A model generated the notes under the pieces. That model saw only the letters and a list, made by a program, of their open reading frames with translations. It did not search any database and was not told where the DNA came from. A stretch of DNA of 37,884 bases, from IMG/VR virus record IMGVR_UViG_2537562092_000002, positions 1-37,884 of that record. One strand, 5' to 3'. The DNA is from a virus. Its lineage: Duplodnaviria > Heunggongvirae > Uroviricota > Caudoviricetes. Position 1 is the first letter of the stretch; the number at the start of each line of letters is the position of its first letter. The position numbers and the translations under genes were made by a program. Of the stretch, positions 2,970 through 29,521 are shown one piece after another.

Positions 2970-3074
2970 AAATATTTCCTTTTTTCGTAATAACTTTCGG
3001 TTATAGCAGCTATTTCCGCTACAATAGCAACAATAGCTGCTATACAGACTGGATATACTGAAAATACAGACAGT

Positions 3075-3992: not shown

Positions 3993-5612
3993 ATGGTAAC
4001 TCGGACAATGCAACAAAAGTATCAGTATGATCGTGTTTTATCCGGCGAACTCCACCCATTCCCTGGCATATACGAGGCGGTTTCCGAACAAATCCTTTTG
4101 CTCATTTTTAAAGCACGTCAACTATATCAGGATCCAGAATATCGCCCCTGGTTTGAAGAACAGCACAGAGTACTCTCTGCATTACGTGCCAATACAGAGC
4201 TCCTGAGAATCTTTAGAGAACAAAGAAGCGCTGAAGAACCAAAGCTTACTATTGAAGAGTCTACCTCTCCCCAACCCACTCCTTCTGCTCTTACAGATGC
4301 GCTTAATGTGATGTGCCATTTATACAATGGTTTTGATGAAGGAAATATCAGTCTGAAAACCTGGGGGGCGATGCAAGAGGTACAGACAACATCAACCTTT
4401 ATCAGCCCAGGACCGAGAACCTGGAAAACACCTGAACTGGCAAAGTTTGTAGGAGATGATTTATTTAATATTCTGACTGAATGTAAAGCTTGGAGTTCAC
4501 CAATTCCAGCAGAAGCCCGGCAGGGGTATTGCCATCAGGATCTGTCTGTTGCGCACTCCTGCACCTCAGAGTTGCTGGCACACCTGAAGCAGTATCATGA
4601 AATAGATGAATCAACAATACTTGCCATAACCATTGGTCTGGCGGTTAACGAATTCTACCAGAATAAGCAAAATATTCCAGAATGGCTTTCCTGTTTTGAG
4701 AATAAGAACAAATGGCCCTGGGACTGCAGGAAGTCAGATACTGAAGATGTGCACAGACTGAGAGAACGACTATCGATAATCGGATGTACAGAATTCGTAA
4801 AAAATATGTTTTCAGTCGCCAGTCAGCGTGAAATACAGACAATGTACAATATTTATGTCCATATTTATGCAGCTGAAATCTGTGGTTGGGTAAAAACAAG
4901 CATGGCGTATTTTAAACCAACAGATTTCATCCAGTACACATGGAAATTCGCAACAGTTACTCCGGATAAAGATGAAAAAACCGAGAATACGACCGCATGG
5001 GAAAGGGATTATTGTCAGATAACCATACAACGAGATGAACTCCTTAGATTGATTCGCACTAATACTCTGCAGGATGCCGCAATTCATCTTTCAGGCTGCC
5101 TGCAATATGCATATCTGGAGTCAGTAAAGCATGATATTGACTATCCAGGAATAGCCCCTAATGCTGAAGAAAAGAAAATGAAACACACAGATTCTATTGA
5201 ATTTTCTGGAATTCGGAATAACATCATAAATGCAGTAAAACGGCTGGAATCATTTGAAAAATGGTATGAAACTAATAAAGTTTTGTTGGTAAGTAATAAA
5301 AAAATACGAACAGAGAAGATTGACGTTGTTGTACGACTTGCGGGACTGAAAGCCTATGATTTGCAGGAAGGGGTTCCGGATGGTCTGAAATGGAAAGTTA
5401 AAGATGGCATAAATGAACGCATCAAAACCGATACCAGTTTATGCCTGCCTCAGGATATCAGTGATACATCGCTAAACCGTTATCGTCACGCTGTGACGCG
5501 CATTGTCAACAACGAAATCGACACATTACTGATGGAACAGAAGAAAAAAATAAAAGATTCCCCTACAGCAAAGATCGACATGCGATCCAACCTTTATGGA
5601 GCAAATGTTTGA
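3993..5612 (+). CDS. Hypothetical protein, 539 aa, AT-rich cargo gene
   Basis: Long uninterrupted ORF preceded by a ~670-bp AT-rich intergenic region; no motif recognised by eye. Confidence 0.5.
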   Translation: MVTRTMQQKYQYDRVLSGELHPFPGIYEAVSEQILLLIFKARQLYQDPEYRPWFEEQHRVLSALRANTELLRIFREQRSAEEPKLTIEESTSPQPTPSALTDALNVMCHLYNGFDEGNISLKTWGAMQEVQTTSTFISPGPRTWKTPELAKFVGDDLFNILTECKAWSSPIPAEARQGYCHQDLSVAHSCTSELLAHLKQYHEIDESTILAITIGLAVNEFYQNKQNIPEWLSCFENKNKWPWDCRKSDTEDVHRLRERLSIIGCTEFVKNMFSVASQREIQTMYNIYVHIYAAEICGWVKTSMAYFKPTDFIQYTWKFATVTPDKDEKTENTTAWERDYCQITIQRDELLRLIRTNTLQDAAIHLSGCLQYAYLESVKHDIDYPGIAPNAEEKKMKHTDSIEFSGIRNNIINAVKRLESFEKWYETNKVLLVSNKKIRTEKIDVVVRLAGLKAYDLQEGVPDGLKWKVKDGINERIKTDTSLCLPQDISDTSLNRYRHAVTRIVNNEIDTLLMEQKKKIKDSPTAKIDMRSNLYGANV

Positions 5613-7315: not shown

Positions 7316-8362
7316 TTATGCTAGAGTTGAATATTCTCCATTTCCTCGGTCGGTGAGTGTTAATTCGCGGCCATTTTCTGTAAATGTAATGGCATCCAGC
7401 AGGCTTTTTCCTGTTACAGCTATACCATATCCAAGGTTATCAATCTTTGAACTGTCCTCAGATGATATTGGTATTTGTACAAGCATACCAACAACAAGGC
7501 CGTATTTGTTAATTATAGGGCCACCGCTATTCCCCCCCTTAACCCTAGCATTGAATAATAAAAAGTCTTGTGAATCTAAGTAAGAGTGACCAGAACCAAC
7601 AATTCGCCCCTTTGACAGTCGGACAAACGAATTTATATGCGAAACGTCATATAACTTTAATGCATCAAATCCTGGAATGGGTGGAAATCCTATTGATAAA
7701 ATTTCATCCAGTACCGAGGCTTTGGTTGAGACCTTAAGTGGTTGAATATTATCTTCATTCGGAATGGTTGTGAAAACTAAAGCGATATCAATACGTTCAT
7801 CGTTAGATACAAAGATTTTATGTATTGGTAAAGCCTCACCACCAGCTCTAAGTATCCTGATACTCTTCATGTCTTCAATAACATGTCTGGCTGTAAATAT
7901 CGTGTGGTTATTCCCAACAATAAAACTAGTACCAAGATCATGTGAACCATCACTTTTTTCAACAACAACAGGTAAAACGGAAGGACTAAGGCGGTCTATG
8001 ATTGACTCAAATCCATCAGCTATAAAATCATACTTTCCATATTTCGCATCTGATTCATTGAAATTCGGTGCGAAATAGCAACGGTCAAAAAGAGTATGTC
8101 CTGAAGACAATTCCATTAAAATACCTTCAGTTGCTAGCTTTTCACAATTGCGTATTAACTTCATCATATCGAGAGTATTTTCCCACTCAGGTTTGAGACG
8201 GGTCAGGCTCTCAATTGTTTTTCTCTCTTTTACGTTATCGTTTTCCGGTTTGTCATAAAAATATTTCACTATTTCTGTTGGTGTTACATATGTTTTTTTT
8301 ATAGTCATTTTTGTACCCGCGATGACGTTATTCCATATATTTTTCTTTGTAGAAAATATCAC
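7316..8362 (-). CDS. Cytoplasmic trypsin-like (S1/chymotrypsin-fold) serine protease domain protein with ~130-aa N-terminal domain of unknown function
   Basis: His/Asp/Ser triad motifs in canonical order: TARHVIED, DIALVF, GGNSGGPI (GDSGGP-like). No signal peptide. Lies in AT-rich cargo between attL and the invertase. Confidence 0.55.
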   Translation of the reverse strand: MIFSTKKNIWNNVIAGTKMTIKKTYVTPTEIVKYFYDKPENDNVKERKTIESLTRLKPEWENTLDMMKLIRNCEKLATEGILMELSSGHTLFDRCYFAPNFNESDAKYGKYDFIADGFESIIDRLSPSVLPVVVEKSDGSHDLGTSFIVGNNHTIFTARHVIEDMKSIRILRAGGEALPIHKIFVSNDERIDIALVFTTIPNEDNIQPLKVSTKASVLDEILSIGFPPIPGFDALKLYDVSHINSFVRLSKGRIVGSGHSYLDSQDFLLFNARVKGGNSGGPIINKYGLVVGMLVQIPISSEDSSKIDNLGYGIAVTGKSLLDAITFTENGRELTLTDRGNGEYSTLA

Positions 8363-8771
8363 TATTGCTGGTAAATGTTAAGTTCAGTGCTCGCACTAAA
8401 GCTGGATGATCAACGTCGCCCTCGTATGGAAATCAGGTAAGATTCATGTCTACTTGGGGTCTAGGGTAGACAGCATAAAAACGTACGATAGCGTTCGATT
8501 GGCTCTCACCCCCGCCTATAAACCATGAGGTTGATAGGGTAGTATCGTTAGGCAATAGTATACATGTAAGTATCCAACCTAATTGGTCTTGAGATTTCTA
8601 ACTAACGTGTCGTTATGTCCGCTTTTGGCACATAGCAGCCCCAGAGACAGTGGTGTAAAGTCATGGAGGGTCGGTGGGAGGATATTCAGTTTCATTCATG
8701 CCGAAATACGGTAAAATCTATAATAGATGGAAATCATTCAATACTCGCACTATCGAAAGTCCACCAGCCAG

Positions 8772-8808
8772 CCACAGCACGTTCTTGCATACAACGTGCC
8801 TGCGGTTT
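8772..8808. repeat. Hairpin-forming repeat, copy 1 (upstream of the GIY-YIG gene)
   Basis: ccacagcacgttcttgcatacaacgtgcctgcggttt; about 33/37 identical to 9793..9829; inner stem gcacgtt/aacgtgc. Confidence 0.6.
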
Positions 8809-8900
8809 TTGAGACCGGTCCGATCATCAAACGAAACATAAAATTAGCTCACACTATGAGGAAAAGTATCTTTTTTTACTATGTAAATTCAAAGGATTAG

Positions 8901-9770
<870 letters not shown>

Positions 9771-9792: not shown

Positions 9793-9829
9793 CCGCAGCA
9801 CGATCTTGCATACGACGAGCCTGCGGTTT
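9793..9829. repeat. Hairpin-forming repeat, copy 2 (between the convergent GIY-YIG and invertase genes; possible bidirectional terminator)
   Basis: ccgcagcacgatcttgcatacgacgagcctgcggttt; outer stem aaccgcag/ctgcggtt; direct repeat of 8772..8808. Confidence 0.55.
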
Positions 9830-10419
9830 CATTTATCTCCGACCGGAAACATCTTATACAGTGTCGATACACCAACATCATAGATGATCGCTACCTTCTG
9901 GCGAGGAATTCCTGCTGCAATTAATCGTCCGGCCTGCTCCCATTGTTCTGGTGTAAGTTTGGGGCGACGTCCACCAATTCGTCCCTGTGCGCGAGCAGCT
10001 TCCAGTCCAGCTTTTGTTCGTTCAACAATCAGTTCACGCTCCATTTCAGCCAGGGCACCCATCACATGAAAGAAAAAGCGCCCCATTGGGGTACTGGTAT
10101 CAATTGAATCCGTCAGACTACGAAAGTTGATGCCTCGTTCGCGCAACTCCTCCACCAGCACGACAAGATGCCGCATACTGCGCTCCAGCCGGTCCAGTTT
10201 CCAGGCCACCAGCGTGTCACCTGCCGATAATGTCCTGAGCAGTTTTTTCAGTCCCGGCCTTTCGGACTTTGTACCGCTTATCTTGTCTTCAAAAATCAGC
10301 TCGCATCCTGCACAGTTCAGCGCATTACGTTGTAGATCTGTGTTCTGGTCATTTGTTGATACACGTACATAGCCAATAAGCATGTTAAATCCCCCTGGTA
10401 AAAGCAGGAATGATGCCAT
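9829..10419 (-). CDS. Serine-recombinase DNA invertase (Pin/Gin/Hin/Cin family); likely true start at MLIGYVRVST (~10383)
   Basis: MLIGYVRVSTNDQNTDLQ...GRRPKLTPEQWEQAGRLIAAG is the classic resolvase/invertase catalytic domain plus C-terminal HTH; adjacent to an invertible tail-fibre segment. Confidence 0.85.
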   Translation of the reverse strand: MASFLLLPGGFNMLIGYVRVSTNDQNTDLQRNALNCAGCELIFEDKISGTKSERPGLKKLLRTLSAGDTLVAWKLDRLERSMRHLVVLVEELRERGINFRSLTDSIDTSTPMGRFFFHVMGALAEMERELIVERTKAGLEAARAQGRIGGRRPKLTPEQWEQAGRLIAAGIPRQKVAIIYDVGVSTLYKMFPVGDK

Positions 10420-10907
10420 TTGCTTGTTATTTCTTCATTTTCATAAACGTTGGTTTGGGAGAAGGTGCTCCAGCTATTGGCGTTCCGTTCTTCTGGCCGT
10501 CCGCTGCAATGCCAAATACTGTAATCGACAGCTGGTCCAGTATGGTGTTTTTGAAGTTCAACGGGGCGAAATTTTCTGCCTCTGATTACCCTGTGCTGGC
10601 AGAAGTGTTTCCTTCGCTGGTATTACCTGAAGCCCGCGGTGATTTCATTCGTATCTGGGATGACGGGCGAGGTGCCGATGGTGGTCGCGAATTATTAAGC
10701 TGGCAGGAAGCTACAAACTTTTCTCAGTTTGCCGGGAATATAGGCGGAGGTGCGGGACACGCAATTAACTTTCATGATGGCATCGCCGGAAATCAGCCAG
10801 GGTTTTCACGATTTAATTTCACCAGTAACTCTGTGGGTGATGGTGTGAATTTTGTTGCTGTCAGACCGCGAAATATTGCATTTAACTTTCTTGTGAGGGC
10901 TAAATAA
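10410..10907 (+). CDS. Alternative tail-fibre C-terminal variable segment (Sv'), promoterless in this orientation
   Basis: Frame runs through the gix site (..NVGLGEGAPAIGVPFFWPS..); PFFWPS-type motif typical of Mu/P1/P2 fibre tips; no independent start expected. Confidence 0.55.
   Translation: MMPFACYFFIFINVGLGEGAPAIGVPFFWPSAAMPNTVIDSWSSMVFLKFNGAKFSASDYPVLAEVFPSLVLPEARGDFIRIWDDGRGADGGRELLSWQEATNFSQFAGNIGGGAGHAINFHDGIAGNQPGFSRFNFTSNSVGDGVNFVAVRPRNIAFNFLVRAK
10438..10463. other. Invertase crossover site (gix/hix-like), left boundary of invertible segment
   Basis: ttttcataaacgttggtttgggagaa fits the TTnTCnnAAACCnnGGTTTnnGAnAA pattern of hix/gix sites and is an inverted repeat of 12260..12285 (about 20/26). 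Confidence 0.65.
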
Positions 10908-11500
10908 TGAAACCTGTTTTTGATGAAAATGGGCTGGCGACAGTGCCGGGCGATATGCGTTGTTTTTATTATGATGCAGTAACGAATGAATATACTGGCT
11001 GGTCTGATGAATATATTAATACTGGCGTAAGTATGCCCGCCTGTTCCACTGGTATTGACCCGGGCGAATACATTCCGGGGAAAGTGGCAGTATTTACGGG
11101 TAAGGGATGGAGCCATGAAGAAGACCACCGCAATGAGACTGTTTACTCAATCGAAAATGGCGCAGCTGTTACAGTGGATTATATCGGTGCCATCAAAGAC
11201 GGTTATGTCACGCTTTCACCGTTAACGCCATACGATAAATGGGATGGTGAGAAATGGGTGACAGATACTGAGGCACAGCATAGTGCCGCAGTAGACGCAG
11301 CAGAAGCACAGCGCCAGTCGCTGATTGATGCTGCAATGGCTTCCATCAGTCTGATTCAACTGAAATTACAGGCCGGACGGAAGCTGACGCAGGCAGAAAC
11401 AACCCGACTTAACGCCGTGCTGGATTACATTGACGCGGTGACGGTAACAGATACCAGCACCGCGCCGGATGTCATCTGGCCTGAACTGCCGGAGGCGTAG
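10907..11500 (+). CDS. Alternative tail-fibre assembly chaperone (U'-like)
   Basis: Immediately follows Sv' with ATGA overlap; size and position match a Tfa/U-family chaperone inside the invertible segment. Confidence 0.55.
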   Translation: MKPVFDENGLATVPGDMRCFYYDAVTNEYTGWSDEYINTGVSMPACSTGIDPGEYIPGKVAVFTGKGWSHEEDHRNETVYSIENGAAVTVDYIGAIKDGYVTLSPLTPYDKWDGEKWVTDTEAQHSAAVDAAEAQRQSLIDAAMASISLIQLKLQAGRKLTQAETTRLNAVLDYIDAVTVTDTSTAPDVIWPELPEA

Positions 11501-11912
11501 GCCATTCAATATCTGGCGCACCGGAAGTATCGACCAGTTCCAGTGTGTCCAGATAATCCAGCCACAAATTATATTGCGCCAGTTCCTCACCTTTCAGGCG
11601 ACCAATCGCCGCTTTACCAGGCCATTGCTTACTGTTTATGTATTCGTTGACCTGATTAATCAATTGCTGCTTTTCCAGTTCGGCTGCGGCAATTTGTTCC
11701 TCATGAGTTGGCGGTGGAATATCAATCCATGCAGGCATTCCGTCGATGACGCCTCTGTATTTTCCTTCTGGTGCTTCCTTCATAAATTCGGCGGCAACAG
11801 TGTCGTCAATTTCGATTCCATCATCGGGCCATTCGCCGGATTCCTGATAAGCGATTTTAAGCTCCACAGGGAAAAACGCATTTTTATCGGCGCTGAAAAT
11901 ATATTTCTGCAT
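11472..11912 (-). CDS. Tail-fibre assembly chaperone (U-like), expressed orientation
   Basis: Follows the tail-fibre gene on the minus strand; its C-terminus overlaps the 3' end of the U' gene in convergent arrangement, as in the Mu G segment. Confidence 0.55.
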   Translation of the reverse strand: MQKYIFSADKNAFFPVELKIAYQESGEWPDDGIEIDDTVAAEFMKEAPEGKYRGVIDGMPAWIDIPPPTHEEQIAAAELEKQQLINQVNEYINSKQWPGKAAIGRLKGEELAQYNLWLDYLDTLELVDTSGAPDIEWPTPPAVQAR

Positions 11913-11914
11913 TT

Positions 11915-12628
11915 CTACCGTCCTATCGAAATATAACTGAATCTGTATTGCTGTGAGATATCACTGGTTGCCACATGCCACGCTGAATTACTGATATGTT
12001 CAAAATTTACAGACAAAACCTGCGGGGCAGGATTCGACGGGTCTGACTGAACGGCATCAGACATAACACTGACTGAAACCATCGGCTGATTAGGGAATGG
12101 TATAGGGAAGTGTCCACTGATAAAGCGGGTCGTGTTTCCTGAAAAAGTGCCAAACTGAACAATATATCCACCTGGTAGCCCGAACCATCCCGAACCAGAA
12201 GCGAATGCTCCCATATCCGGTATCTGATTATCTCCTGTGCCCACATCCCTTTTCGCCGCTTCTCCTAAACCAAGGTTTTCGAGAGCCGTTTTCACCGTGC
12301 CATCCGATTTGATATCGCCAAACGGATTCTTGCGGCTCAGGTATTCAACAGCAAACCCCGATCCCAGCAATTCAACAAAACCGGGCAGATCACCATTATC
12401 AAGCACATCCCGTTGCGTTTTATCACTTACAAACTGGGCCAGAGCTGCAGCAATAAAGCTGGCCTGCCGAATAACCTTATTGACTTGCGCACTGGATGCT
12501 TTCCCTGCTGTAAATCCGGATATAAGCGCAGGCAACGCTTCCCATTCCTCCTGCGACATAACATTGGCATTTCGATCAGTTGCAAACGCTTTAAAGTCAT
12601 TTTTCGCCATCAGAGTAATACTCCCCAT
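11915..12628 (-). CDS. Tail fibre (S-like): constant N-terminal part plus variable C-terminal part inside the invertible segment
   Basis: The gix site at 12260..12285 lies in-frame (..[13 protein letters not shown]..), so the C-terminal ~115 aa are exchangeable on inversion; follows a gp48-like gene. Confidence 0.6.
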
Positions 12629-14486: not shown

Positions 14487-14839
14487 TACGCCTCCGATGT
14501 AACAGTCGTTATTCCATAGAGAGTGTCGATTTCAGCGGAAAACATGACACGTCGGGTCGTGGTATCCACCGTCGTATTGAAAGAGAGGATTGATTTAACG
14601 CCCTGCGTTTCCAGAATGCGTTTTCTGATCGCTAGGTTGTAAGTTTCCGGTTTTTGCCTGCCCAGCACAGACTGGAACCACGGAGTCCCTTCGGTAGTGT
14701 CGAGAAACCATTGCCCATACCACAATTCGAATCGCGTTTTCACAGCCTGTGCCACGGCCTCAGGCGAGTTAATCAGCCAGGTGTCATCACCGCTGCCAAA
14801 GGTGTAATCGCCATCGGCGTCTTCACGTCTGTATCGCAT
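14486..14839 (-). CDS. Baseplate wedge protein (Mu gp46 / P2 gpW / T4 gp25-like)
   Basis: 117-aa ORF translationally coupled between the spike and J-like genes. Confidence 0.5.
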   Translation of the reverse strand: MRYRREDADGDYTFGSGDDTWLINSPEAVAQAVKTRFELWYGQWFLDTTEGTPWFQSVLGRQKPETYNLAIRKRILETQGVKSILSFNTTVDTTTRRVMFSAEIDTLYGITTVTSEA

Positions 14840-15591
14840 CAGTTTACCCCGTCGGTACTGCTTCCACCGCGCTGAACACCGCCATGAGTGTGCGTATCAT
14901 CGATTGGCTTGCCGTTAGCCTTAACGCTCCCCAAGAACTCAACAGCACCAGTGATTTTTGAAGCCACGCCAGAAACAACAGACCCCACCATGCCTCCCAT
15001 CCAGGTTAACAGGCCATGAATGGTTACTTTCTCAGAAAAATCAGCCAGAGGGGCAACCACATCAAGGCCCCCCGGAGCGACAATTTTAATTTTCCTGGTA
15101 TCAGGATTAAGCTCAAAATAGGTGCTGCCGTCATCACTACGCAACTGTGTGGCACTGGTATTAATACCGCTAATCTTCCTTGCCTGCGACTGGGGACCGA
15201 CAATACAAAACGCATCCGATAAATCATGCATTCTGTCATCGACCGGCTCCTGTATCCCGCCACTCTGCCACCAGAAATCAATACAACGATCGGCAAAAAT
15301 CACCAAACATTCATCACCGGCTTTAACTGGAAACGTTAGCGTACAGCCTCCGCCACGCGGGAATACCACTGGCACATCCACCAGCAATGGGTAATTTTTG
15401 GTAATGCGGTTGCCGTCGTTATCAATTTCAACGTAACGGATAGCAGGCTGTACAACCGCCGTCACCGCATCAGGAGCGAATGACTGAACAATGCCAGGCA
15501 AGGCGACACGGATCTGGTTCTTTGTTGTTTCCCGTTCAGATTTAAATGTTTCGGCAAGGTCGCCGCTGCGGGTCTGGTCAGATACTGCCAT
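14839..15591 (-). CDS. Baseplate spike/assembly protein (Mu gp45 / P2 gpV-like)
   Basis: 250-aa ORF at the gpV position upstream of gp46/gp47-like genes. Confidence 0.5.
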   Translation of the reverse strand: MAVSDQTRSGDLAETFKSERETTKNQIRVALPGIVQSFAPDAVTAVVQPAIRYVEIDNDGNRITKNYPLLVDVPVVFPRGGGCTLTFPVKAGDECLVIFADRCIDFWWQSGGIQEPVDDRMHDLSDAFCIVGPQSQARKISGINTSATQLRSDDGSTYFELNPDTRKIKIVAPGGLDVVAPLADFSEKVTIHGLLTWMGGMVGSVVSGVASKITGAVEFLGSVKANGKPIDDTHTHGGVQRGGSSTDGVN

Positions 15592-15610
15592 TTAGTAGGC
15601 TCCAGAAAGC

Positions 15611-15636
15611 AAAAAACCCGCCAAGTGGCGGGTTTG
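15611..15636 (-). terminator. Rho-independent terminator (bidirectional-looking) after the inserted cassette
   Basis: aaaaaacccgccaagtggcgggttt: 6-bp GC stem cccgcc/ggcggg with 4-nt loop, flanked by A6 and T3, between the 142-aa gene stop and the spike gene start. Confidence 0.7.
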
Positions 15637-15655
15637 AATTTTGAGAAATTTCAGC

Positions 15656-16084
15656 TTATGCAGTTAACGAGTCATCACCAATCTTCAGTAATTGATTAAC
15701 GATTGCATCGACCTCTTCCGCATCCAGAATTACACTTCTCGCGGTAATCCGGTTGATTTTCCGCTCAAGCTTGTAATCAGAATTAACACGTTGGGCATGC
15801 GTCATTTTCAGTTTAACGCCGATTTTCTTTACTGCGTTAACATCAACATCGTTAAGTGCAGCTGCCTCACCACTACAAAAGGCCGTATAGACTCGCATGT
15901 GAACTCCACCTTTTAGTTTTTCACCATCTTGTGTAGCGGTCGGTACCAGATTGTTGGTGATCCGTAAGGCGGAATGGTACATACCATAGTATGCTCGGCT
16001 AATAGCATTTCTCGTCCACATCTCACCGTTTAGAGCCAGGGAATGCTTAGCCAATTCAAGAAAACAGGTATGCTCAACCGACAT
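15656..16084 (-). CDS. Hypothetical protein, 142 aa; possibly HEPN-like; downstream gene of a two-gene cassette
   Basis: ATGA start/stop overlap with the upstream 243-aa gene; N-terminal ...RNAISRAYYGMYHSAL... resembles HEPN-type helices (R-x6-H); followed by a terminator. Confidence 0.45.
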   Translation of the reverse strand: MSVEHTCFLELAKHSLALNGEMWTRNAISRAYYGMYHSALRITNNLVPTATQDGEKLKGGVHMRVYTAFCSGEAAALNDVDVNAVKKIGVKLKMTHAQRVNSDYKLERKINRITARSVILDAEEVDAIVNQLLKIGDDSLTA

Positions 16085-16815
16085 TAGAGTTCCCCGGCTT
16101 CAAAGCATCCGACGCATTCTGAATCCGCAAGCCCCGCAATAATAATCTCATCAGCCAAGGCATTATTCATCTGCGAAAGAAGCACTGGATCGTCTGTTTT
16201 GACTTCAACGAACAGCGTATCAAGTTCTGACATTACATAAAAAACATGAGCGCCAGCAAGACGAGCGCGGTACTTTTCTGCAACGTTCATCATGAGCCGC
16301 CCAATAGTTTTTAGCTCCTGAGCATGATCTTTTTGGGTATGCAGATAATTGAGCGTGTCATACCATTTGCCCATATCTTCAGGGCGCGGTACTTCCATTG
16401 CAGTTAGCATCGGCATCACCTTTTCAAGCAAATCGATATCAACCCAGTATGCAGAAATTGTAGCAACCTCAGCCAATATCGTTGGATTAAGTGAATCAGA
16501 TGCTTTCTGAATCATCACATACTGGCGAGCATGCAAACCTAAGTTACGCAGCGCAATCGTATAGTTACAAAAAGAAACTGGATCGTTAGGCGCTATTCTC
16601 AACCCCCGCTCACAGAGTGAACATCCTTCATCTATTTCACCAAGAACAAGCTTAGCTAAGCCTTCAATTGATAGCCCCTGATAACGTTCAGGTAGTTTCT
16701 TCGCTTCACGAATGATTCGATGGATTTCAAACTCACTCAGAAGGTTTTCACCCTTAGTTAATGAAGGAGTCAGAAGATCTAACAGTTCTCCTGATTTTGG
16801 CTGCGCTAAACTCAT
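16084..16815 (-). CDS. Hypothetical protein, 243 aa; upstream gene of the two-gene cassette
   Basis: ORF preceded by a ~150-bp non-coding gap inside an otherwise tightly packed tail operon; no recognised motif. Confidence 0.45.
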   Translation of the reverse strand: MSLAQPKSGELLDLLTPSLTKGENLLSEFEIHRIIREAKKLPERYQGLSIEGLAKLVLGEIDEGCSLCERGLRIAPNDPVSFCNYTIALRNLGLHARQYVMIQKASDSLNPTILAEVATISAYWVDIDLLEKVMPMLTAMEVPRPEDMGKWYDTLNYLHTQKDHAQELKTIGRLMMNVAEKYRARLAGAHVFYVMSELDTLFVEVKTDDPVLLSQMNNALADEIIIAGLADSECVGCFEAGEL

Positions 16816-16964
16816 GTTTTAGTTATTCCTGGCTTTAATGAAGTAGCATATCGATGGCAATCCACCATCAAAAAGTCAGTGCAGTGTAATCGCTCGTCTC
16901 AAAAAACAACAGTTTTTAGAGCACATTTTGTTGTTTTTCAGGCGTTACGAATTTCAGGTTACCT

Positions 16965-17297
16965 TCACCCAGCCACTTTTTTACAAGGGAAAGATCCTAT
17001 GATTTTCGGCGCATCCATGCTGTTCTGCAGAAGCTGGACATTCAGGAAAGCTTTTCCGTTACGTTTCACAAACTCAAAGCCGTAATTGTTACCATCACGG
17101 GAAGGCATCAGGCCCATGTCCATTTTTATGTTTGAATAGTCACCATCTTTTCCCAGAAATTTTATCTTCTGTGATGTGACAGTTTCACCGTTAATAACAG
17201 TCATTCCGTCACCGGTCATCGTGTAGTTGCCGCACTGAATTGCAGCCATCGCCGGAGCAGTAACCATCATAACTAACGCCAAACATAACCGTTTCAT
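16965..17297 (-). CDS. Small secreted (signal-peptide) protein, ~110 aa
   Basis: Start MKRLCLALVMMVTAPAMAA is a typical Sec signal peptide; TAATG overlap with the stop of the baseplate-hub gene. Confidence 0.5.
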   Translation of the reverse strand: MKRLCLALVMMVTAPAMAAIQCGNYTMTGDGMTVINGETVTSQKIKFLGKDGDYSNIKMDMGLMPSRDGNNYGFEFVKRNGKAFLNVQLLQNSMDAPKIIGSFPCKKVAG

Positions 17298-18361
17298 TAA
17301 AGCCCTCTTTCCCTCGCTGATGAGGAAACAAGATCCGCCGCGCCACGCGCTTCGCACATCATATCCATGTACCACGCCTGGCCCCTTGTATCGCCAGTGT
17401 ACATAATCCCGCGCACAATATAAACGCCATCCGTTGCGATGCTGGCAGGTTGTGCTGTGGTGCCGCTGAGTGTGATATTTCCGTCCGTGTTCTGGTCGGT
17501 GCTCTGCCCACCAGCCATCGCAATATCATTGTTCGACAGCGCGGTGCGGTACACGGAAGCCTGATCCAGCTGAATAAGCCCGTTAACCCGGATGTTCGGA
17601 TTAATAAGCGCGCGGACGTTTACGCCGTTACCGATAGTCTGCTGCGGCATGCCAATAAGCCCGGTAGCGCTGTTGAGCACAATCGCTTCATGAACATATT
17701 CGTTATTCGCCACCATCTGGCGCTGACCGTCCACGAATTGCCATGTTGCGCCACATTGCCCGGCTACGTTATCCATTAGATGCCGCGTCATGCCAAAGAG
17801 TACCCGCCCCCGGGGGAATACAGTAGCAGGCATTTCAGGCGTCAGGCCTTCGGTCGCGCCTTTGGCCTCAAAGTCTTTCATCAGCGCACGGTTTACATCA
17901 GCGACCGTGTAACCGGCAGCCAGCGTCTGTGAGGTTATACTGGTGGCAAAAGCCAGATCAGTATCGGCTGCCTGAATCAGGACGTAGGAATCAACCGGGC
18001 TGTCTTTTCCTGTGACCGAGTAGCGAATTTCACCGCTGAAAATCAGTCCGTAGTTGCGGCCATCACTCTGGCCCACGTCCGCCGCATCAACCTCCCGCAC
18101 GGTCCCGACATCGCTTGCCGACACCTCCGGCGCGATACCGTCGTAACCCGCAATCAGACGCACTTTCGAAAACTCCTGCCCGGTAATTCGGTTCACAGTA
18201 TCTGCCGAGAGGTTATAAATTTTGATAGTCCCTACCCGGGACGCGCTGCTGATGTTGAACCAGTCGATCGTAAAGGTGACTTTGAAATCACTTAGCTCAA
18301 TTCCCTGACCGTTCCCGTCCACAAGCTGCAGCTCGAAATGTCTCATCCAGTTCTGTGTCAT
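17297..18361 (-). CDS. Baseplate hub / tail protein (Mu gp44 / P2 gpD-like)
   Basis: 354-aa ORF at the conserved position between the tape-measure-proximal genes and the baseplate spike. Confidence 0.5.
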   Translation of the reverse strand: MTQNWMRHFELQLVDGNGQGIELSDFKVTFTIDWFNISSASRVGTIKIYNLSADTVNRITGQEFSKVRLIAGYDGIAPEVSASDVGTVREVDAADVGQSDGRNYGLIFSGEIRYSVTGKDSPVDSYVLIQAADTDLAFATSITSQTLAAGYTVADVNRALMKDFEAKGATEGLTPEMPATVFPRGRVLFGMTRHLMDNVAGQCGATWQFVDGQRQMVANNEYVHEAIVLNSATGLIGMPQQTIGNGVNVRALINPNIRVNGLIQLDQASVYRTALSNNDIAMAGGQSTDQNTDGNITLSGTTAQPASIATDGVYIVRGIMYTGDTRGQAWYMDMMCEARGAADLVSSSARERGL

Positions 18362-18363
18362 GC

Positions 18364-18666
18364 TTACTCCGTTGATACCAGTAAATGACTGCGCCCGCCC
18401 AGGTCAGTTTTCGTGGGATAATCCTGTGTGTTGTCATCGCAGACCACCAACAGCTTAAAACCAAGTCCCATACAGGCGTACTGCGCCAGCAGGTCGGCAC
18501 CAGTGACGAGAGGAATACCGGAGATTACCGGCTCCCCTCTGTCGTTCTGCAGGTCCATAATCCAGTACAGATCGCGCCATATGATGCTAATCCGCCAGGT
18601 AACACCACCTAAGACGATGCTGAACTGCTGGTTGTCCGCTGTCAGCGGAATTTCCTGAATTGTCAT
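18364..18666 (-). CDS. Phage tail protein, 100 aa
   Basis: Tightly coupled ORF in the tail operon. Confidence 0.35.
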   Translation of the reverse strand: MTIQEIPLTADNQQFSIVLGGVTWRISIIWRDLYWIMDLQNDRGEPVISGIPLVTGADLLAQYACMGLGFKLLVVCDDNTQDYPTKTDLGGRSHLLVSTE

Positions 18667-23474: not shown

Positions 23475-24755
23475 TTAATCTCCGAAAAAGATGACTGGTG
23501 CTTCCACCAGCGATTTAATACCGTACTCGCGCACAACCTTCCGGCGCAGGCGCACCGTCATATCGTAGCGGCGGACCCATTGCTGATTAATAAATTCAGG
23601 GAAGGGGGTCAGACCTGTGTAATCGCCAAGAGACAGCCCCAGCGCATTCAGTGCTGCATTGTTCTGCGGTACAGATATACCGTCACGAAACCGGGACGCA
23701 TACACCATCCCCGCCGGACCATAAAACGAAGCCATACACTCAATCGTTTCATGCCGCCAGAGCTTAGAGCCATCATCGGTCTGTCTGGTGAATGCCGGAC
23801 TGTCATCACCTGACCATCCGATACCCAGTTTGATATGCGCATCAACGGCAGCCTGTACCCATTCGGATGGAATCAGGACGCCTTCCGCTGATGCGCTGTA
23901 GTTCAGATCAAGTTCCTGTGCCACCACCACCGGATTATCGATTTTCTCGCATTCCCTGCGATACCACTCTTCATCCTTGCGAGGATCATCCCGCCAGTGG
24001 AATGTGAATACCGGTATCTTCCCGCCATGACGCTTCTGAGCGAACGGGTTAGCCATGCCGTTAACTGAACTCAGGTCGATACGGCAACGCGTCGTTTGTG
24101 ACAACGCCGCATCAATCAGCAGAGGACGCTGAAGGAATGCAGCCTCATCAACCAGATAAAGCGTGGTACGGTCACCACGACCAATATTATCGCCAGCCTC
24201 GCCTTTGATAACGGCACCAGTTTCAGGAAACTCAACACGCATATATGGCGCGTGCTTCTTCTCACTCCACGAACCGCGAAACTCTACAGGTAGCGTTTCC
24301 ACGAACTTGCGCGCCTTCCAGAACAATGCTTTCGGGTCACCAGTGCTGTCGACGTATTCCTCTTTACGGGAGCCAAAACCGATAACCATTTCTTTGTTGA
24401 AGAGACAAAGCGAGCATGCCAGTCCGATCGCGGTCCAACTGAGCCCCATTTCACGGGATTTTTCGGTAATACCATTCTCCCGATTGCTCCAGCGTTCCAT
24501 AATCCAGTGGATCCACTCCTCCTGCTTAGGGAAGAGTAAAAACGGAATGGTCACCGGCAGGCCATAATCAATATTACGCGGGTCCGTTGTCATGCCCCAG
24601 TCGATGATGAACTGAGCCGGATTGGTTCGGTAAAACTGTTTTAGTGCAGGCAATATTTCAGGATTCTGGCGAATGCGCTGTAGGCGTTCCATCCGCCATT
24701 CAAAAACCATCTGGTAATCAGGATGTTTAAAATCGAAGGGGAATGGTAACGGCAT
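23475..24755 (-). CDS. Terminase large subunit (TerL), possibly C-terminally truncated or fused
   Basis: Deviant Walker A-like [11 protein letters not shown] and Walker B-like [10 protein letters not shown]; follows terS. Only ~220 aa remain after Walker B, and the next gene is the tail sheath rather than a portal. Confidence 0.6.
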
Positions 24756-24757
24756 AC

Positions 24758-25309
24758 TTAGCCCATCATTTTTCTATACGCTTCTGCAACCTGCTCCGGC
24801 GTTAAGTTGGTAATTTCTGTTCTGACTGGTCCTCCGTCAGCACCAGTCACTTCATTTTTGACATTGTCTTTAAACGCCTGAACAGAAACATGACGCCCGA
24901 GCAACTCAAGGTTTTTAACCTTATCAGGCCATTTGATTTTCTTCAGAAGTGCGGCGCTATCTGCGGATGCCATCTCCACGACATCCATTCCTGATAACGT
25001 TGTGCGCCATACCTTAGGCCAGTCTTTAATGGGTTTTAGCTCACCGTTTTGCAGGAGAATGTCAAGCACATCCATCTGGTCGATTTCAATAAGGCGATTA
25101 AGTACATATTCTGCATTAATACCAACAAGATCATTGCGTTGCGCTTTCAGTTCGGCGATTCTTAACTTGATGTCAGGTTTTGACAGGTTTTCGGATGCGG
25201 TACGGTTGGCTGTTTTTGCGCTGTACCCCGCCCGAATAGCCGCTTGCGTGGCGTTTAAATCGATGAGGTACTCGCGACAGAACATCTCTTGCTTGTCTGT
25301 GAGTGCCAT
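24758..25309 (-). CDS. Terminase small subunit (TerS)
   Basis: N-terminal [34 protein letters not shown] is typical of phage small terminase HTH regions; directly upstream of terL. Confidence 0.65.
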
Positions 25310-25761
25310 TTTTTCTCAAAGGTGAATTTATGAGCTCATTAACGTTTATCGGATTGTCACAGTTACTTTCTAGGAAAGGTGAGTTATTACAGCAAAATAC
25401 GAATGATTTATTAGAACGTGTTAACACCGCATGGAATAACAAACGAGACCTTAATAAGCAAATTTCCATAGAGCTAAATGATGGAGAGCTTGAGGTTTCA
25501 ATTCCACAGCTACGCTTTAAGTGTTTTACAGAAAGTAAGCTTTCACTTCACGAAGGCTCATTAATTGGGGTTATTACTTTTTACACATCGCGAGATGGAA
25601 AAAAACAGGAGTTTCATAAAATTTTTCTTGATTGGAACAATTGCATGCATTTTGGGGCGCTTGACTCAACAGCTCCAATAGACATCGACTATACCGAAGA
25701 TGTTGAGTATCTCTTTATGAACGCTCTAATCGATTCTGCTTATCGAAATAATTTAATCTAA
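25303..25761 (+). CDS. Hypothetical moron protein (likely start MSSLTFIG near 25330), opposite strand to late genes
   Basis: AT-rich ORF between the lysis cassette and terS, at the position and orientation of lambda bor; no lipoprotein signal; no recognised motif. Confidence 0.45.
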   Translation: MPFFLKGEFMSSLTFIGLSQLLSRKGELLQQNTNDLLERVNTAWNNKRDLNKQISIELNDGELEVSIPQLRFKCFTESKLSLHEGSLIGVITFYTSRDGKKQEFHKIFLDWNNCMHFGALDSTAPIDIDYTEDVEYLFMNALIDSAYRNNLI

Positions 25762-26203
25762 TTGATGTTGGTGGTGAACTTTTGCCACCCAGTTAATCAC
25801 TCTTAGCAGGATATAAGCCATTGTCGAGACCACTCATTGAATGGTCTCTGCAATAACCGATGTCTTTCCATCAGTCCGCCACCACAAAGAATCTTTTTTG
25901 CCATAAGGCTGGATGTTCATCTTTCAGTGGCTGCCAGTGTTATTTCCCCACTTACTGGCTTGGGTTGTTTCGCTGTACTGCCGTAACTGGTTGCCCAGAA
26001 TAAATTCCGGTTTCATTATCAAGCCCACCCGTAGATAGGCTTTGTAATGAACTGGCTCTTATCTCAACGCAGCCCCTTACCGCGCGCCAGATGCTCAACT
26101 TCAAGCATCAGCAATGAGATGTTTAATCTGGATTCACTCCAGAAGTGATCACCACCCTGTCTACAGAGCCAGATGTGAAGGATGATGAGTAAAATTATCG
26201 CTA

Positions 26204-26674
26204 TCATCGAAGGCATTGCGTCCTGATGTATTCCTGCAAGTAGTTAACCTGCGCGGTTATCCTGTCGATTCCACTTCGGAGACGGTAATAATTGAGTTCA
26301 GCATCTGCTGTAAGTCTTGGGCTTTCTCCATCGCCCATGCTGCTGGCTCCGGTCGTTGACTTTGCACAGGTGGCGGCGACTTGCAGGCGCTTACGCCCAG
26401 CAGAAACATCAGCACGGAGACTTTCGATAGTCGCGTTAGCATCAGCAAGCTCCTTTGTGTATCTTGCGTCGAGTTCTGCTACATCACGTTGACGCTTCCG
26501 CATGTCAGCGATGGTGGCGTTCGCCTTCTCCAGTTCACTGGCCTTGTTATCGCGCTGCTCTTTGTAGGCGATTGCGTTATCACGGTAATGATTAACAGCC
26601 AATGACAGGCAGACGATGATGCAGATAACCAGAGCGGAGATAATCGCGGTTACTCTACTCATTGTTGCCCCCAC
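26204..26674 (-). CDS. Rz: Spanin inner-membrane subunit Rz (i-spanin)
   Basis: [38 protein letters not shown]... closely resembles lambda Rz; follows the endolysin. Confidence 0.85.
26257..26448 (-). CDS. Rz1: Spanin outer-membrane lipoprotein Rz1 (o-spanin), embedded in Rz in another frame
   Basis: [29 protein letters not shown]... has a lipobox (LGVSAC) and Pro-rich segment, wholly inside Rz. Confidence 0.7.
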
Positions 26675-27156
26675 AAACAGACTTCACGCTCAATCTCACG
26701 GCGAGTCATCAGCCCTTTCCATTGCTTACCGCCAGCGTATGTCCAGCGCCGTAGCTGATCACATGCGCCTTTGATATCGCCCTGGTTTATTTTGCGAAGA
26801 AGCGTCGATGTTCTGAAATTTCCAGCACCAACGTTGTAAACGAACGAGTAAAGAGCGCCGCGCGTTGTTTCCGGTATATCGACTTTGATGTACGGGTTAA
26901 TTTGTCTGGCGACAGTGGCAAGGTCTTTATTCAGGAGGGCTTTGCATTCTGCTTCGGTATACGTTTTACCGAGCATAATGTCTTTTCCGGTATGCCCGTA
27001 ACATACAGTCCATACACCAACGATATCTTTATATGGTATGTAGCTGACGCCTTCCAGACCATCGTTACCACTTGGGCCAGTGATTAACACAGATGCTATA
27101 GCAATAGCCCCGCCACCAATAGCCGCAGCAACGGCTTTTCGTAATGATGGAGGCAT
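26659..27156 (-). CDS. R: SAR endolysin (lysozyme, phage 21 R-type)
   Basis: N-terminal signal-anchor-release segment [20 protein letters not shown] followed by a lysozyme domain; matches phage 21 R as recalled. Confidence 0.85.
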
Positions 27157-27371
27157 TATTCACCTCTCGCAGCCTTTCTTCTGTCTTCTCTGATTTTGAA
27201 GTACAGATTTGTCAGATAGGTGAGAAAGCCCAACACAAGGCTTCCAAGCACCCCAATCGCAGCCCACTGTGATGGACTGACCTGATCCAACCACTGCAAA
27301 AACCAGTATCCCGCACTACCAGCGGATGTTCCGTAGGCAATGCCAGTTGAGATTTTGTCCATTGATTTCAT
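27156..27371 (-). CDS. S: Pinholin (phage 21 S-type), dual-start holin/antiholin
   Basis: [71 protein letters not shown] matches S21 (71/68-aa forms from M1/M4). Confidence 0.85.
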
Positions 27372-27489
27372 AGCAACGCCTCCGCCAGTAACGGATTGCG
27401 TAGTTCTTATATTGGGAAGGGAGAAAAAGAAGACCGCAGCATAACTATCACTGATGAATTCAGGACATCCAGTGGCTACGGCTCAGTTA

Positions 27490-27565
27490 TGGTGCTGGTT
27501 AACGGACTTGAACCGCTACCCATTCGCTTACAAGGCGACCGCTCTACCATTGGAGCTAAACCAGC
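27490..27565 (-). tRNA. Phage-encoded tRNA, anticodon UGU (Thr) by manual folding
   Basis: Reverse complement GCTGGTTTAGCTCCAATGGTAGAGCGGTCGCCTTGTAAGCGAATGGGTAGCGGTTCAAGTCCGTTAACCAGCACCA folds as a cloverleaf (7-bp acceptor, GGTTCAAGTCC T-arm, loop CUUGUAA). Confidence 0.6.
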
Positions 27566-27570
27566 ATATT

Positions 27571-27645
27571 TGGCGGGACAGCGTGGACTCGAACCACGAT
27601 AAGAAGGTTAACAGCCTTCCGTAATGACCTTTATACGACTGACCC
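27571..27645 (-). tRNA. Phage-encoded tRNA, anticodon GUU (Asn) by manual folding; slightly degenerate D-arm
   Basis: Reverse complement GGGTCAGTCGTATAAAGGTCATTACGGAAGGCTGTTAACCTTCTTATCGTGGTTCGAGTCCACGCTGTCCCGCCA: perfect anticodon and T stems, loop CUGUUAA, one acceptor mismatch. Confidence 0.5.
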
Positions 27646-27649
27646 AAAT

Positions 27650-27691
27650 AAAAAAAGCCACCGTTGCAACTTAAGAGTCACTAACGGCAGC
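27650..27691 (-). terminator. tR-prime-like terminator downstream of Q (late-promoter leader region)
   Basis: Minus strand gctgccgtt(17-nt loop)aacggtggc followed by T7; located between Q and the tRNA/lysis genes as in lambdoid PR-prime/qut/tR-prime units. Confidence 0.45.
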
Positions 27692-27736
27692 TTATGCGAA
27701 TAGTGTTGCTCATTTGCTCAATGATGTCAACACGTT

Positions 27737-28282
27737 CTATGCTACATGTTTAATTTTCTCTACACGTTTCCGGTTTTTAAACGCACTATCCAGAACCGGG
27801 TAAATCATAAACAACGAGGCATTGAGGATTTCGTCAACTTCCCGTCGACAGGTTGCGAGCGATGGTTTTTGAATGCGCCCGCCGCCCCGGCATAACATCT
27901 TGCGAGGTCTTGCGACGCGATGATAGTAAGATGCAATGGCGTGCTTGGAAGAGCCGTGGGCGTAGTAGCTGAGGAGGATGCCAAAGGCTTTCTTGTCAAT
28001 GTACATGACGGAATCGACGACCTGAGAAATCAACATTCCATCATCATCATTACACATTGGCCTTGTCATAACTCTTCCCGGCTCTACGCTCTCCATGAAC
28101 TTAGCTATTACGCTGCTCATGCGCTTTTCCAGACGACCTGAATAAACCCATGCGCCCCACAGTTCAAGCCAGCCATTCAGCCACTCGTGCTGTTCTTTGG
28201 TGAGGTTTAGTTCTCTTATGCCCATGCGCCTTCTCCCTTGTGATCTGGAATGGTTTTTACTGAGAACGTCATGCGGCCTCAC
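27737..28282 (-). CDS. Q: Late-gene antiterminator Q (phage 21/82-type); start may be MGIRELNL at ~28225
   Basis: ...[27 protein letters not shown]... and Cys-rich C-terminal region resemble lambdoid Q proteins; sits upstream of the late terminator and lysis genes. Confidence 0.75.
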
Positions 28283-28790
28283 TTCTGCTGTTTCGCAGGT
28301 CTTTGAGTTTCTGCTGATACTCCGCCTTGATGGCCCTGCACTCTTCGACAGTCCAGCGATGGCGGTTATGGTTTGATTCGATTTCGTCTACTGCTTCCTG
28401 CCCGATGCGGCTAATCAGTTCGACGCGATACGGAACGAGATTTCCGCTTTTGTGCTGGTTGCACACCACGCATTGCTTGTGAATATTGCGTTCATCAAAT
28501 CGGAGTTGAGGTGCCGCAGCAGTTGTCCGGTAATGTCCGGCATCCCACTGAGCAGACGTGAGCGTTCCGCAAGAGATACATGGTAAGTCGCGGTCTCTTT
28601 CTCTGATGAAGGCGTTTACGGCTTGTTGGGCTTGTTTAATCCAGTAACTGCGGGGCTTTAAGGCGAGTTTTCTAATCTTAAGTTTATCTTTCTGTTCCTT
28701 CCACTGAGAGACTGCTGCATCGCTAATGCCTAACGCTTTAGCTACCGCACGCTGGGTTCCGAAGTGGTCGATAACATCTTTCTTGTACAT
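28269..28790 (-). CDS. In-frame fusion: P22-type Cro N-terminus (~31 aa) joined to lambda NinG/Rap C-terminal ~140 aa (deletion product)
   Basis: [32 protein letters not shown] matches P22 Cro; [43 protein letters not shown]...NSRSEAA matches the lambda NinG C-terminus. Confidence 0.75.
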
Positions 28791-28870
28791 AGACTCGCTC
28801 CGAAATTAAAGAACACTTAAATTATCTATCAAAGGAATCTTAAGTCAAGTTTATTTAAGATGTCTTAACT
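28791..28870. promoter_or_regulatory. Immunity region OR/PR/PRM with P22-type operators
   Basis: Divergent c2/cro intergenic region with three near-palindromic TTAAG(N)CTTAA-type operators (e.g. atttaagatgtcttaa, ttaaagaacacttaa, atcttaagtcaag). Confidence 0.65.
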
Positions 28871-29521
28871 ATGAATACACAACTGATGGGTGAGCGTATT
28901 CGCGCTCGCAGAAAAGAACTTAAGATTAGGCAGGCTGCCCTTGGCAAGATGGTTGGCGTGTCTAATGTTGCTATTTCCCAATGGGAGCGTTCTGAAACTG
29001 AGCCCAATGGCGAAAACCTATTGGCTTTAGCCAAGGCTTTACAGTGCTCCCCTGATTACTTGTTGAAAGGAGAAGATAGTCTTTCAAACATTGCCTATCA
29101 CAGCAGGCATGATCCAAGAGGTTCGTATCCTCTAATTAGTTGGGTAAGCGCAGGATGTTGGATGGAAGCTGTAGAGCCATATCATAAGCGTGCAATAGAT
29201 AACTGGTACGATACAACCGTAGATTGTTCAGAAGATTCGTTTTGGCTGGACGTAAAGGGTGATTCGATGACGGCTCCAGCCGGTCTTAGCATCCCGGAAG
29301 GGATGATAATACTAGTCGATCCTGAAGTAGAACCTCGTAATGGGAAGCTGGTAGTGGCAAAGCTCGAAGGAGAAAACGAGGCAACTTTCAAGAAGTTAGT
29401 TATTGATGCTGGCAGAAGGTTTCTAAAACCACTTAACCCACAATATCCGATGATTGAGATCAACGGGAACTGCAAAATCATCGGTGTAGTTGTCGATGCA
29501 AAAATAGCAAACCTTCCATAA
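28871..29521 (+). CDS. c2: Prophage repressor C2 (CI-like; HTH plus LexA-type S24 autopeptidase domain)
   Basis: MNTQLMGERIRARRKELKIRQAALGKMVGVSNVAISQWERSE... matches P22 C2; C-terminal domain carries GDSM and a Lys-containing dyad region. Confidence 0.9.
   Translation: MNTQLMGERIRARRKELKIRQAALGKMVGVSNVAISQWERSETEPNGENLLALAKALQCSPDYLLKGEDSLSNIAYHSRHDPRGSYPLISWVSAGCWMEAVEPYHKRAIDNWYDTTVDCSEDSFWLDVKGDSMTAPAGLSIPEGMIILVDPEVEPRNGKLVVAKLEGENEATFKKLVIDAGRRFLKPLNPQYPMIEINGNCKIIGVVVDAKIANLP

Follow-up and report, generated by a model that had tools for sequence, protein, structure and literature searches.

A predicted TPR–HEPN gene pair as mobile cargo at a hotspot within a prophage baseplate operon

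By HEPN subtype, the closest described system to the gene pair reported here is the type VII HEPN–MNT system (HepT/MntA), in particular its AF0298-like HEPN-T/UPF0332 subgroup. The toxin HepT carries an RX4HXY motif with the Tyr that is AMPylated by its partner, a minimal nucleotidyltransferase (MNT) recognizable by a GS…DxD signature. AF0298-like HEPN-T proteins and AbiV lack the His of the Rx4-6H motif, which is often replaced by an Asp; a second conserved His, located in the helix-2/3 insert, was proposed to rebuild the active site (Anantharaman et al. 2013, PMC3710099). HEPN domains tied to tetratricopeptide repeats (TPR), fused or in one operon, were described in LA2681 and C6orf70/DUF4209 (Anantharaman et al. 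2013). DS-28 ('ANEX') of DefensePredictor, a validated anti-phage system of E. coli, consists of two genes encoding a 163-aa HEPN nuclease and a 252-aa hypothetical protein. As prophage accessory HEPN genes, HepS (Gifsy-1) and Tha encode lysogen-protecting RNases triggered by phage tail proteins. Finally, HK97/λ morons and P2/P4 hotspots (Rousset et al. 2022) are known for variable cargo of lower GC content lying between conserved genes, with a terminator at the edge and an alternation of toxin and defense genes. Here, we analyzed a 37,884-nt stretch of Caudoviricetes DNA (IMG/VR record IMGVR_UViG_2537562092_000002; hereafter the window, meaning the whole stretch), in which a preliminary description made from the sequence had drawn attention to an overlapping gene pair inside a baseplate operon. 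This pair, hereafter A–B, lies on the minus strand and is composed of gene A (16084-16815; 243 aa, pI 4.84), whose product is proposed to be a regulator, antitoxin or sensor, and gene B (15656-16084; 142 aa, pI 8.55), whose product has a HEPN fold and is proposed to be an RNase effector or toxin.

A–B resembles each of these systems in part. B falls in the AF0298-like subgroup of the HEPN–MNT toxins; however, the 243-aa partner A combines TPR with an α/β domain and has no nucleotidyltransferase (NTase) match. Since A also lacks conserved catalytic residues, neutralization of B by AMPylation is unlikely. B retains an invariant Tyr in R99-x4-Y104, with a spacing that differs from that of HepT and without the His. 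HepS, in which one protein combines the canonical motif R100-x4-H105 with auto-inhibition as a tetramer, is set apart by these descriptions from A–B, which consists of two genes, has a non-canonical motif and possesses a separate TPR partner. LA2681 and C6orf70/DUF4209 keep the canonical Rx4-6H and belong, as described, to other HEPN clades than B. DS-28, whose two genes are of comparable size, was considered and rejected: its gene order is reversed, with the HEPN gene first, its motif is canonical (RNSVAH), and its sequences look unrelated to A and B in a comparison made by eye only. Unlike the P2/P4 hotspots, the slot of A–B lies inside the baseplate operon of a SEN34/E217-like myovirus, and PADLOC matched no named P2/P4 system.

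A, B and the small secreted protein encoded next to them gave no significant match to a Pfam, NCBIfam or PADLOC family, and PHROGs assigned them only to families of unknown function. The tail block is 98% identical to the chromosome of E. coli strain T28R, in which A (WP_000050470) and B (WP_000110002) are both annotated as hypothetical; neither the pair nor these accessions are named in the literature searched. Pfam, NCBIfam, PADLOC v2 and the literature searched thus offered no named system for the pair, as the preliminary description had held. What is new is that an MNT-clade HEPN is paired with a TPR protein and that the hotspot lies inside a baseplate operon; HEPN, TPR, morons and toxin–antitoxin logic are known.

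As read from the sequences, A and B are one horizontally mobile two-gene unit. Both are real genes rather than chance open reading frames (ORFs), because they have full-length homologues (E down to 1e-155 for A and 1e-77 for B) and low dN/dS ratios in unsaturated comparisons (0.10-0.14 for A, ~0.05 for B). Both are under purifying selection. A B homologue was located 0-10 nt after A in 49/49 fetched A-bearing loci (38-100% identity). A and B are likewise adjacent in four loci found later, and L057, L059 and L060 show the same arrangement. The genes downstream of two distant A members, P0072 (28% identity) and P0109 (~18%), are B-like according to hhalign (100% and 97.9%, respectively).

The pair was encountered in four contexts. 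In SEN34-like prophages of E. coli, Salmonella, Ewingella, Citrobacter and others, it lies between the small gene and the spike gene. It is also found between the tail-tube/YdaY genes and the tape-measure gene of a siphovirus-type prophage of Klebsiella variicola, and after a Phage_tail_S (tail-completion-like) gene in prophages of Enterobacter ludwigii and Serratia that bear a contractile-tail (GPD) hallmark in the tail cluster. In the fourth context, a P22-like immI region, the gene order is pRha, A, B, Arc, Arc, Ant. A–B is very common in Salmonella, with 1139 indexed blocks of the collection, and a scan of genome contigs with an A alignment returned one species representative, Citrobacter braakii. 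Cassette alleles recombine independently of their flanks, and a GC-rich hairpin followed by a T-run ends the cassette in every context. In the P22-like immI locus (L059, ~2870-4280), the hairpin core AGCCCACTCAGGTGGG occurs on both sides of the A–B cassette; this bracketing by a shared core suggests that the terminator hairpins are recombination joints for cassette exchange.

In the window, the flanks of the pair are the baseplate hub on the left (17297-18361, minus; 354 aa; phrog_196, E 6e-89, and a weak match to PF22759, E217_GP41) and the membrane-puncturing spike on the right (14839-15591, minus; PF18352, E 3.6e-43, plus an Apex motif, with a RefSeq name to the same effect), in agreement with the preliminary description. 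Its anatomy of the locus was likewise correct, all on the minus strand. The ATG of a small secreted protein (16965-17297; 110 aa; signal peptide MKRLCLALVMMVTAPAMA/A; two conserved Cys) overlaps the hub stop in TAATG, a non-coding gap reported as ~150 bp and in fact of 149 bp (16816-16964; GC 0.376) precedes A, and the B start overlaps the A stop in a second TAATG. A terminator hairpin (15614-15635; AAACCCGCC-ACTT-GGCGGGTTT, then TTTGCTTTCT) stands directly upstream of the spike ribosome-binding site (RBS), with a 9-bp stem including 6 G-C pairs, a 4-nt loop and a T-run after it (folding z -2.47). GC content is 0.55 in the hub, 0.44 in the small gene, A and B together, 0.38 in the gap and 0.51 in the spike, or ~0.44 over 15600-17250. 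The pair has several traits of a moron, being missing from close relatives, deviant in GC (0.44 vs 0.55 and 0.51) and followed by a terminator, the last of which is common to all cargos of the slot.

The insertion had first been taken to comprise three genes with a terminator of their own. Neither point held up, as only A and B are variable. The small gene follows the hub in all relatives, including the A–B-less L002, L003, L004 and L054-L058. Hub, small gene and spike are kept in phage vB_EcoM-689R2, Salmonella phage SEN34, Yersinia phage YP3 and E. coli loci L054-L058; in all of these, the interval from the small gene to the spike is filled by other cargo or by a diverged version. Conservation of homologues at this position in all related tail clusters, which the preliminary description had named as a mark of structural components, was thus observed for the small gene; A–B is not so conserved.

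The identity of the small gene to the window copy is 56% where A–B is 99-100% identical and 97-98% where A–B is just 68-88% identical. Because it is kept with or without A–B and its identity varies independently of the pair, the small gene is part of the backbone, or diversifies separately, and delimits the slot on the left, outside the cassette. Its alleles differ sharply (32-99% identity; loci L002, L003, L004, L008, L011, L054 and L058) and their recombination is independent of both the hub and the cargo. Every relative encodes the protein with a cleavable signal peptide and with two conserved Cys (…QCG…, …FPCKK…); the protein matches phrog_3443 (E 2.4e-53) and probably corresponds to the 'STY1065/STY2022 family' of RefSeq. 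For phage E217, the described virion proteins do not include the product of the gene flanked by hub gp41 and tip gp43.

The same hairpin and T-run precede the spike whatever the cargo, and were found in L002, L003 and L054-L058; YP3 (L004), unlike the other relatives, has no terminator hairpin upstream of the spike. Given that the hairpin and T-run are kept across cargo types, the terminator is a shared boundary that closes the slot on the right, and in this phage lineage it does not belong to A–B alone.

To survey the slot, positions 14800-18400 were used as a megablast query against 5426 complete E. coli genomes. The tail block was present in 353/5426 genomes (~6.5%), and 32 of these 353 carried the A–B cassette (at least 80% query coverage), leaving 321/353 without it. 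L057 contains a diverged A–B allele (243 + 140 aa; hhalign probability of 100% for both genes). L054 encodes a 258-aa protein followed by a 123-aa protein, annotated 'HEPN domain-containing' in RefSeq, that is B-like (hhalign 97.3%, E 1.7e-11). In L056, a 257-aa A-like gene is followed by a 441-bp stretch that encodes a B-like HEPN ORF in frame 1. This ORF (L056 793-1233; E. coli BH100N, NZ_CP025703.1; …ISRAYYSMLH…RDARNEADYDL…) was overlooked by RefSeq, where the stretch is annotated as intergenic. The 258-aa and 257-aa partners align weakly and colinearly with A (E 0.03-0.06) and have the C-terminal motif of A, N-x-[DE]-L…L…C…F.

Further cargos were seen at the slot. In E. coli BY63 (L055, 838-1828), a 190-aa hypothetical protein is encoded together with a YafO-family toxin. 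The gene that precedes this toxin is not a YafN-type antitoxin, and the 190-aa protein may be another non-canonical toxin partner. L058 carries a gene for a 79-aa DUF4282 membrane protein, and thioredoxin-domain proteins and DUF2335 proteins are further cargos. The cargo of phage 689R2 (L002, 2353-2865) is a single 170-aa protein with RNNLFHGGKY, a canonical HEPN-type Rx4H by motif alone, which had no Pfam or PADLOC match; its gene overlaps the small secreted-protein gene and is presumably translationally coupled to it. In YP3 (L004, 2420-3220), the slot is occupied by a solo gene whose 266-aa product is a distant relative of A (218 aligned columns at an hhalign E of 3.6e-5).

Judging from this inventory, the slot is a hotspot for cargo, in which toxin-type genes abound. 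No description of a baseplate-operon hotspot between a small secreted-protein gene and the spike was found in the literature searched. That A–B is two-gene mobile cargo of this hotspot and not a structural element is close to certain. The preliminary description's notion of accessory cargo inside the baseplate operon is thus upheld by the distribution of the pair across relatives.

We then considered what the two proteins may do, starting with B. The structures of A and B were predicted as monomers, and B adopts a four-helix up-down HEPN fold of the AF0298/UPF0332 'HEPN-T' type, which bears out the early guess of a HEPN protein. Several B homologues are labeled UPF0332 by JGI, and a single-sequence search of the PDB with B gave no match. 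The segment RAYYGMYHSAL, on which that guess was built, is a genuine HEPN signature, namely helix 2 of the UPF0332 type, but it is not the catalytic motif. The R30-x6-H37 pattern belongs to this signature helix and does not occupy the catalytic position. The catalytic-type residues are R99, D103, Y104 and H62. Of these, R99-x3-D103-Y104 lies in the last-but-one helix, and the invariant H62 (GGxH) is provided by the helix-2/3 insert (residues 44-60).

Invariant positions of B are R25, S29, R30, Y32, Y33, Y36, H37, R41, G59, G60, H62, R64, H96, R99, D103, Y104, K109 and N111. R99, D103 and H62 are invariant in 23 B sequences and kept in the distant L059 and L060, and R30, Y33, H37, H62, R99, D103, Y104 and N111 are kept in the partners of A homologues at 18-28% identity. 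In a profile search, SRAYYGMYHSAL was aligned to STAYYAMFHAAK of AF0298, and R99…D103-Y104 to the R…D-Y of AF0298. B therefore fits the AF0298-like subgroup in that the Arg is kept, the His is replaced by Asp and an alternative His is present in the helix-2/3 insert.

A is a TPR protein by sequence and by fold. Residues ~7-181 are folded into helical repeats, and two TPR motifs, of the tandem 34-residue helix-turn-helix kind, can be recognized from the sequence at ~44-110; residues ~186-240 form a small C-terminal β-β-α-β domain. A single-sequence search of the PDB with A gave only a marginal TPR match, and PADLOC v2.0.0 returned PDC-M71B only, at E 0.037 and over the TPR stretch. In BFVD, two unannotated proteins of uncultured siphoviruses have the whole A fold (TM 0.71 and 0.66). 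Across 53 diverse members, conservation of at least 90% was limited to N84, a residue of the TPR framework, and F238; there were no invariant polar residues and no catalytic signature. This lack of invariant polar residues argues for A being a binder rather than an enzyme. No NTase, helix-turn-helix or ribbon-helix-helix domain was detectable in A. A decayed MNT/NTase at its C-terminus was considered and rejected in view of the β-hairpin-α-β topology and the absence of GS…DxD and of any invariant acidic residue.

The gap upstream of A holds a conserved block, ATTACACTGCA, with a candidate -10 element (TACACT, 16883-16888) and a poor -35, and a short inverted repeat (GATGG-N-CCATC) ahead of the RBS. 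RNA folding of the gap gave no significant structure (z -0.84). The TACACT block is common to cassette-bearing loci of E. coli, Salmonella and others. In Klebsiella, Enterobacter and Ewingella, A is preceded by TTGAA(A/G)-N17-TACACT with a palindrome in the spacer (TTACC-N5-GGTAA), which can be read as a putative σ70 promoter plus operator; of this arrangement, the cassettes of E. coli and Salmonella, that of the window among them, retain only the ATTACACTGCA block.

The prophage that carries the pair has tail genes of the SEN34 (Brunovirus)/E217 type, comprising an E217-type sheath, a PhiTE-type tube, plug, hub, spike, sheath initiator and baseplate J. Genes for an integrase (35263-36426) and for a CI-like repressor (28871-29521) were identified, as was a block of lambdoid genes, NinG–Q–S–R–Rz (~26378-28699), that shares 98% identity with phage SfI, and because of this block the late operon is presumably under Q antitermination. 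The neck and tail genes come almost directly after NinG–Q–S–R–Rz. Since no terminase-, portal- or capsid-sized ORF is present between that block and the neck/tail genes (~24755-28870), the prophage looks head-less and defective, yet its tail genes and the A–B cassette are intact.

Further features were noted in this prophage. A 426-aa ORF (23475-24755, minus) matches the neck terminator family PF23961 over its last ~115 residues. The protein of its relatives is 187 aa long, and the N-terminal extension of ~310 aa may be a fusion that arose from deletion of the head module. A Gin/Cin-type serine invertase (9829-10419; Resolvase + HTH_7) adjoins two oppositely oriented Caudo_TAP tail-fiber assembly genes (10907-11500, plus; 11472-11912, minus), which indicates that 9829-11936 is an invertible host-range segment. 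Past the invertase, at the tail-fiber end (7316-9770), genes for a trypsin-like peptidase (7316-8362, minus) and a LEM-3-like GIY-YIG nuclease (8946-9770, plus) may be further accessory or defense cargo.

Regarding function, we lean towards a moron-type module for toxin–antitoxin action or abortive infection, with a TPR protein instead of MNT regulating a HEPN RNase, a reading that we hold with modest confidence. HepS and Tha are precedents for abortive infection by HEPN proteins of prophages. A reading of this kind, already put forward in the preliminary description, is the best fit, as the slot elsewhere holds other HEPN pairs and a YafO-toxin pair. The layout of A–B is also toxin–antitoxin-like: the genes are co-oriented, TAATG-coupled and strictly co-occurring, and an acidic A is combined with a basic B. 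We infer RNase activity and toxicity of B, binding of B by A, a trigger and expression in the lysogen.

According to this proposal, B would be a HEPN-fold ribonuclease of the AF0298-like subtype that acts as the toxic effector, and A a non-enzymatic TPR scaffold, translated first and coupled to B, that would bind B and hold it inactive. A would thereby stand in for the MNT nucleotidyltransferase, the usual partner of this HEPN subtype; given that A bears no enzyme signature, restraint would come from binding rather than from AMPylation. Loss or titration of A, or its binding of a ligand, would free B, leading to RNA cleavage and cell arrest. The trigger could be a protein of an infecting phage captured on the TPR surface, or A could itself be the labile element, and the arrest would amount to abortive infection, to prophage addiction, or to both. 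In the lysogen, transcription would begin within the gap preceding A and end at the hairpin ahead of the spike; during lytic growth, Q-modified polymerase would read through this hairpin. Lysogen-expressed, terminator-stopped genes that are read through under Q are the classic moron logic of lambdoid phages.

Several observations weigh against this proposal. The canonical Rx4-6H motif is missing from B, where the stretch reads R99-V-N-S-D103-Y104 and none of the positions R+5 to R+7 is a His. For AF0298-like proteins, the alternative active site is a published prediction only, as no biochemical demonstration of it was found in the literature searched. With PADLOC v2.0.0, B gave a marginal hit to HEPN_IX only (E 0.0094). 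Most type II antitoxins carry a DNA-binding domain, and A has none. In the YP3 slot there is no HEPN gene and no room for one, so that A-type proteins can work without B. A consensus scan found no σ70 promoter in the gap of the window, leaving the conserved TACACT block as the sole signal of that kind; the well-formed promoter and its palindrome occur only in the other contexts. Lastly, all A–B instances lie within or beside tail or late modules in late-gene orientation, pointing to a possible role in the phage's own cycle.

A broader version of the toxin–antitoxin/abortive-infection reading can be put forward tentatively, with the balance somewhat against it. A–B would then represent an undescribed family of prophage two-component HEPN immune or toxin modules, in which a TPR scaffold replaces MNT as the keeper of an AF0298-type RNase with a non-canonical active site and the TPR surface senses a protein of the infecting phage. 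Related versions (258 + 123 aa; 257 aa with an unannotated HEPN; 252 + 143 aa) and YafO would swap at an unrecognized defense hotspot, and solo A-like genes such as that of YP3 would be orphan antitoxins for counter-defense.

The explanation that survives best beside these is pure addiction, in which a selfish toxin–antitoxin pair stabilizes the cassette or the prophage by post-segregational killing without any phage sensing. This would account for the layout of A–B and for the YafO-type pair found at the same slot in other strains, and HEPN–MNT modules are classical toxin–antitoxin systems. However, a TPR scaffold of ~180 residues exceeds what a simple neutralizing antitoxin needs, and toxin–antitoxin and abortive-infection roles are not mutually exclusive. 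We consider addiction as the sole function unlikely.

A benefit to the phage in its lytic cycle appears rather improbable. In this scenario, A, with or without B, would be expressed from the late operon and would counter HEPN or toxin defenses of the host or of a rival prophage, or would modulate host RNA late. The late-gene setting and orientation of every instance would be explained, as would the solo A-like gene of YP3 and the relatives of the A fold in uncultured siphoviruses. On the other hand, B retains its full set of conserved catalytic-type residues, its linkage to A is strict in the 49/49 loci and in the distant members, and the neighboring cargo types are toxins. Furthermore, the intact cassette of an apparently head-less prophage argues for use in the lysogen.

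It is very improbable that B has no catalytic activity and serves as a HEPN-fold binder of a nucleotide or RNA ligand, which would make the pair a regulatory or sensor module instead of a toxin. The missing His of the canonical motif would fit such a protein, and some HEPN domains are non-catalytic binders according to Anantharaman et al. (PMC3710099); against this stand the closely set invariant residues of B (Arg, His, Asp and Tyr), among them H62, which is predicted to complete the active site of the subtype. The remaining idea, that A–B is a baseplate structural or assembly factor such as a TPR chaperone for hub and spike with a HEPN-fold adaptor, draws on the position between hub and spike and on the frequent role of TPR proteins as assembly chaperones, but it is effectively refuted, since the pair is missing from most phages whose hub and spike are near-identical (321/353 E. 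coli copies, and 689R2, SEN34 and YP3), is replaced by unrelated genes at the slot, is also present in a siphovirus and an immI region and is of low GC; a structural role was thus rejected on the basis of distribution.

Current annotation is blind at this slot, as A and B carry the RefSeq label 'hypothetical', belong to PHROGs families without an assigned function and have no significant PADLOC match. If the proposed mechanism proves false, the locus will still be a clean case of modular cargo exchange within a late operon. If it is true, the baseplate-operon hotspot would be a site to mine for more toxin or defense cassettes, and A–B would offer an E. coli-tractable test case for the alternative HEPN active site predicted in 2013, made of Arg, Asp and a displaced His. 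It would also mean that MNT-clade HEPN RNases can be controlled by a protein-binding TPR scaffold instead of by AMPylation.

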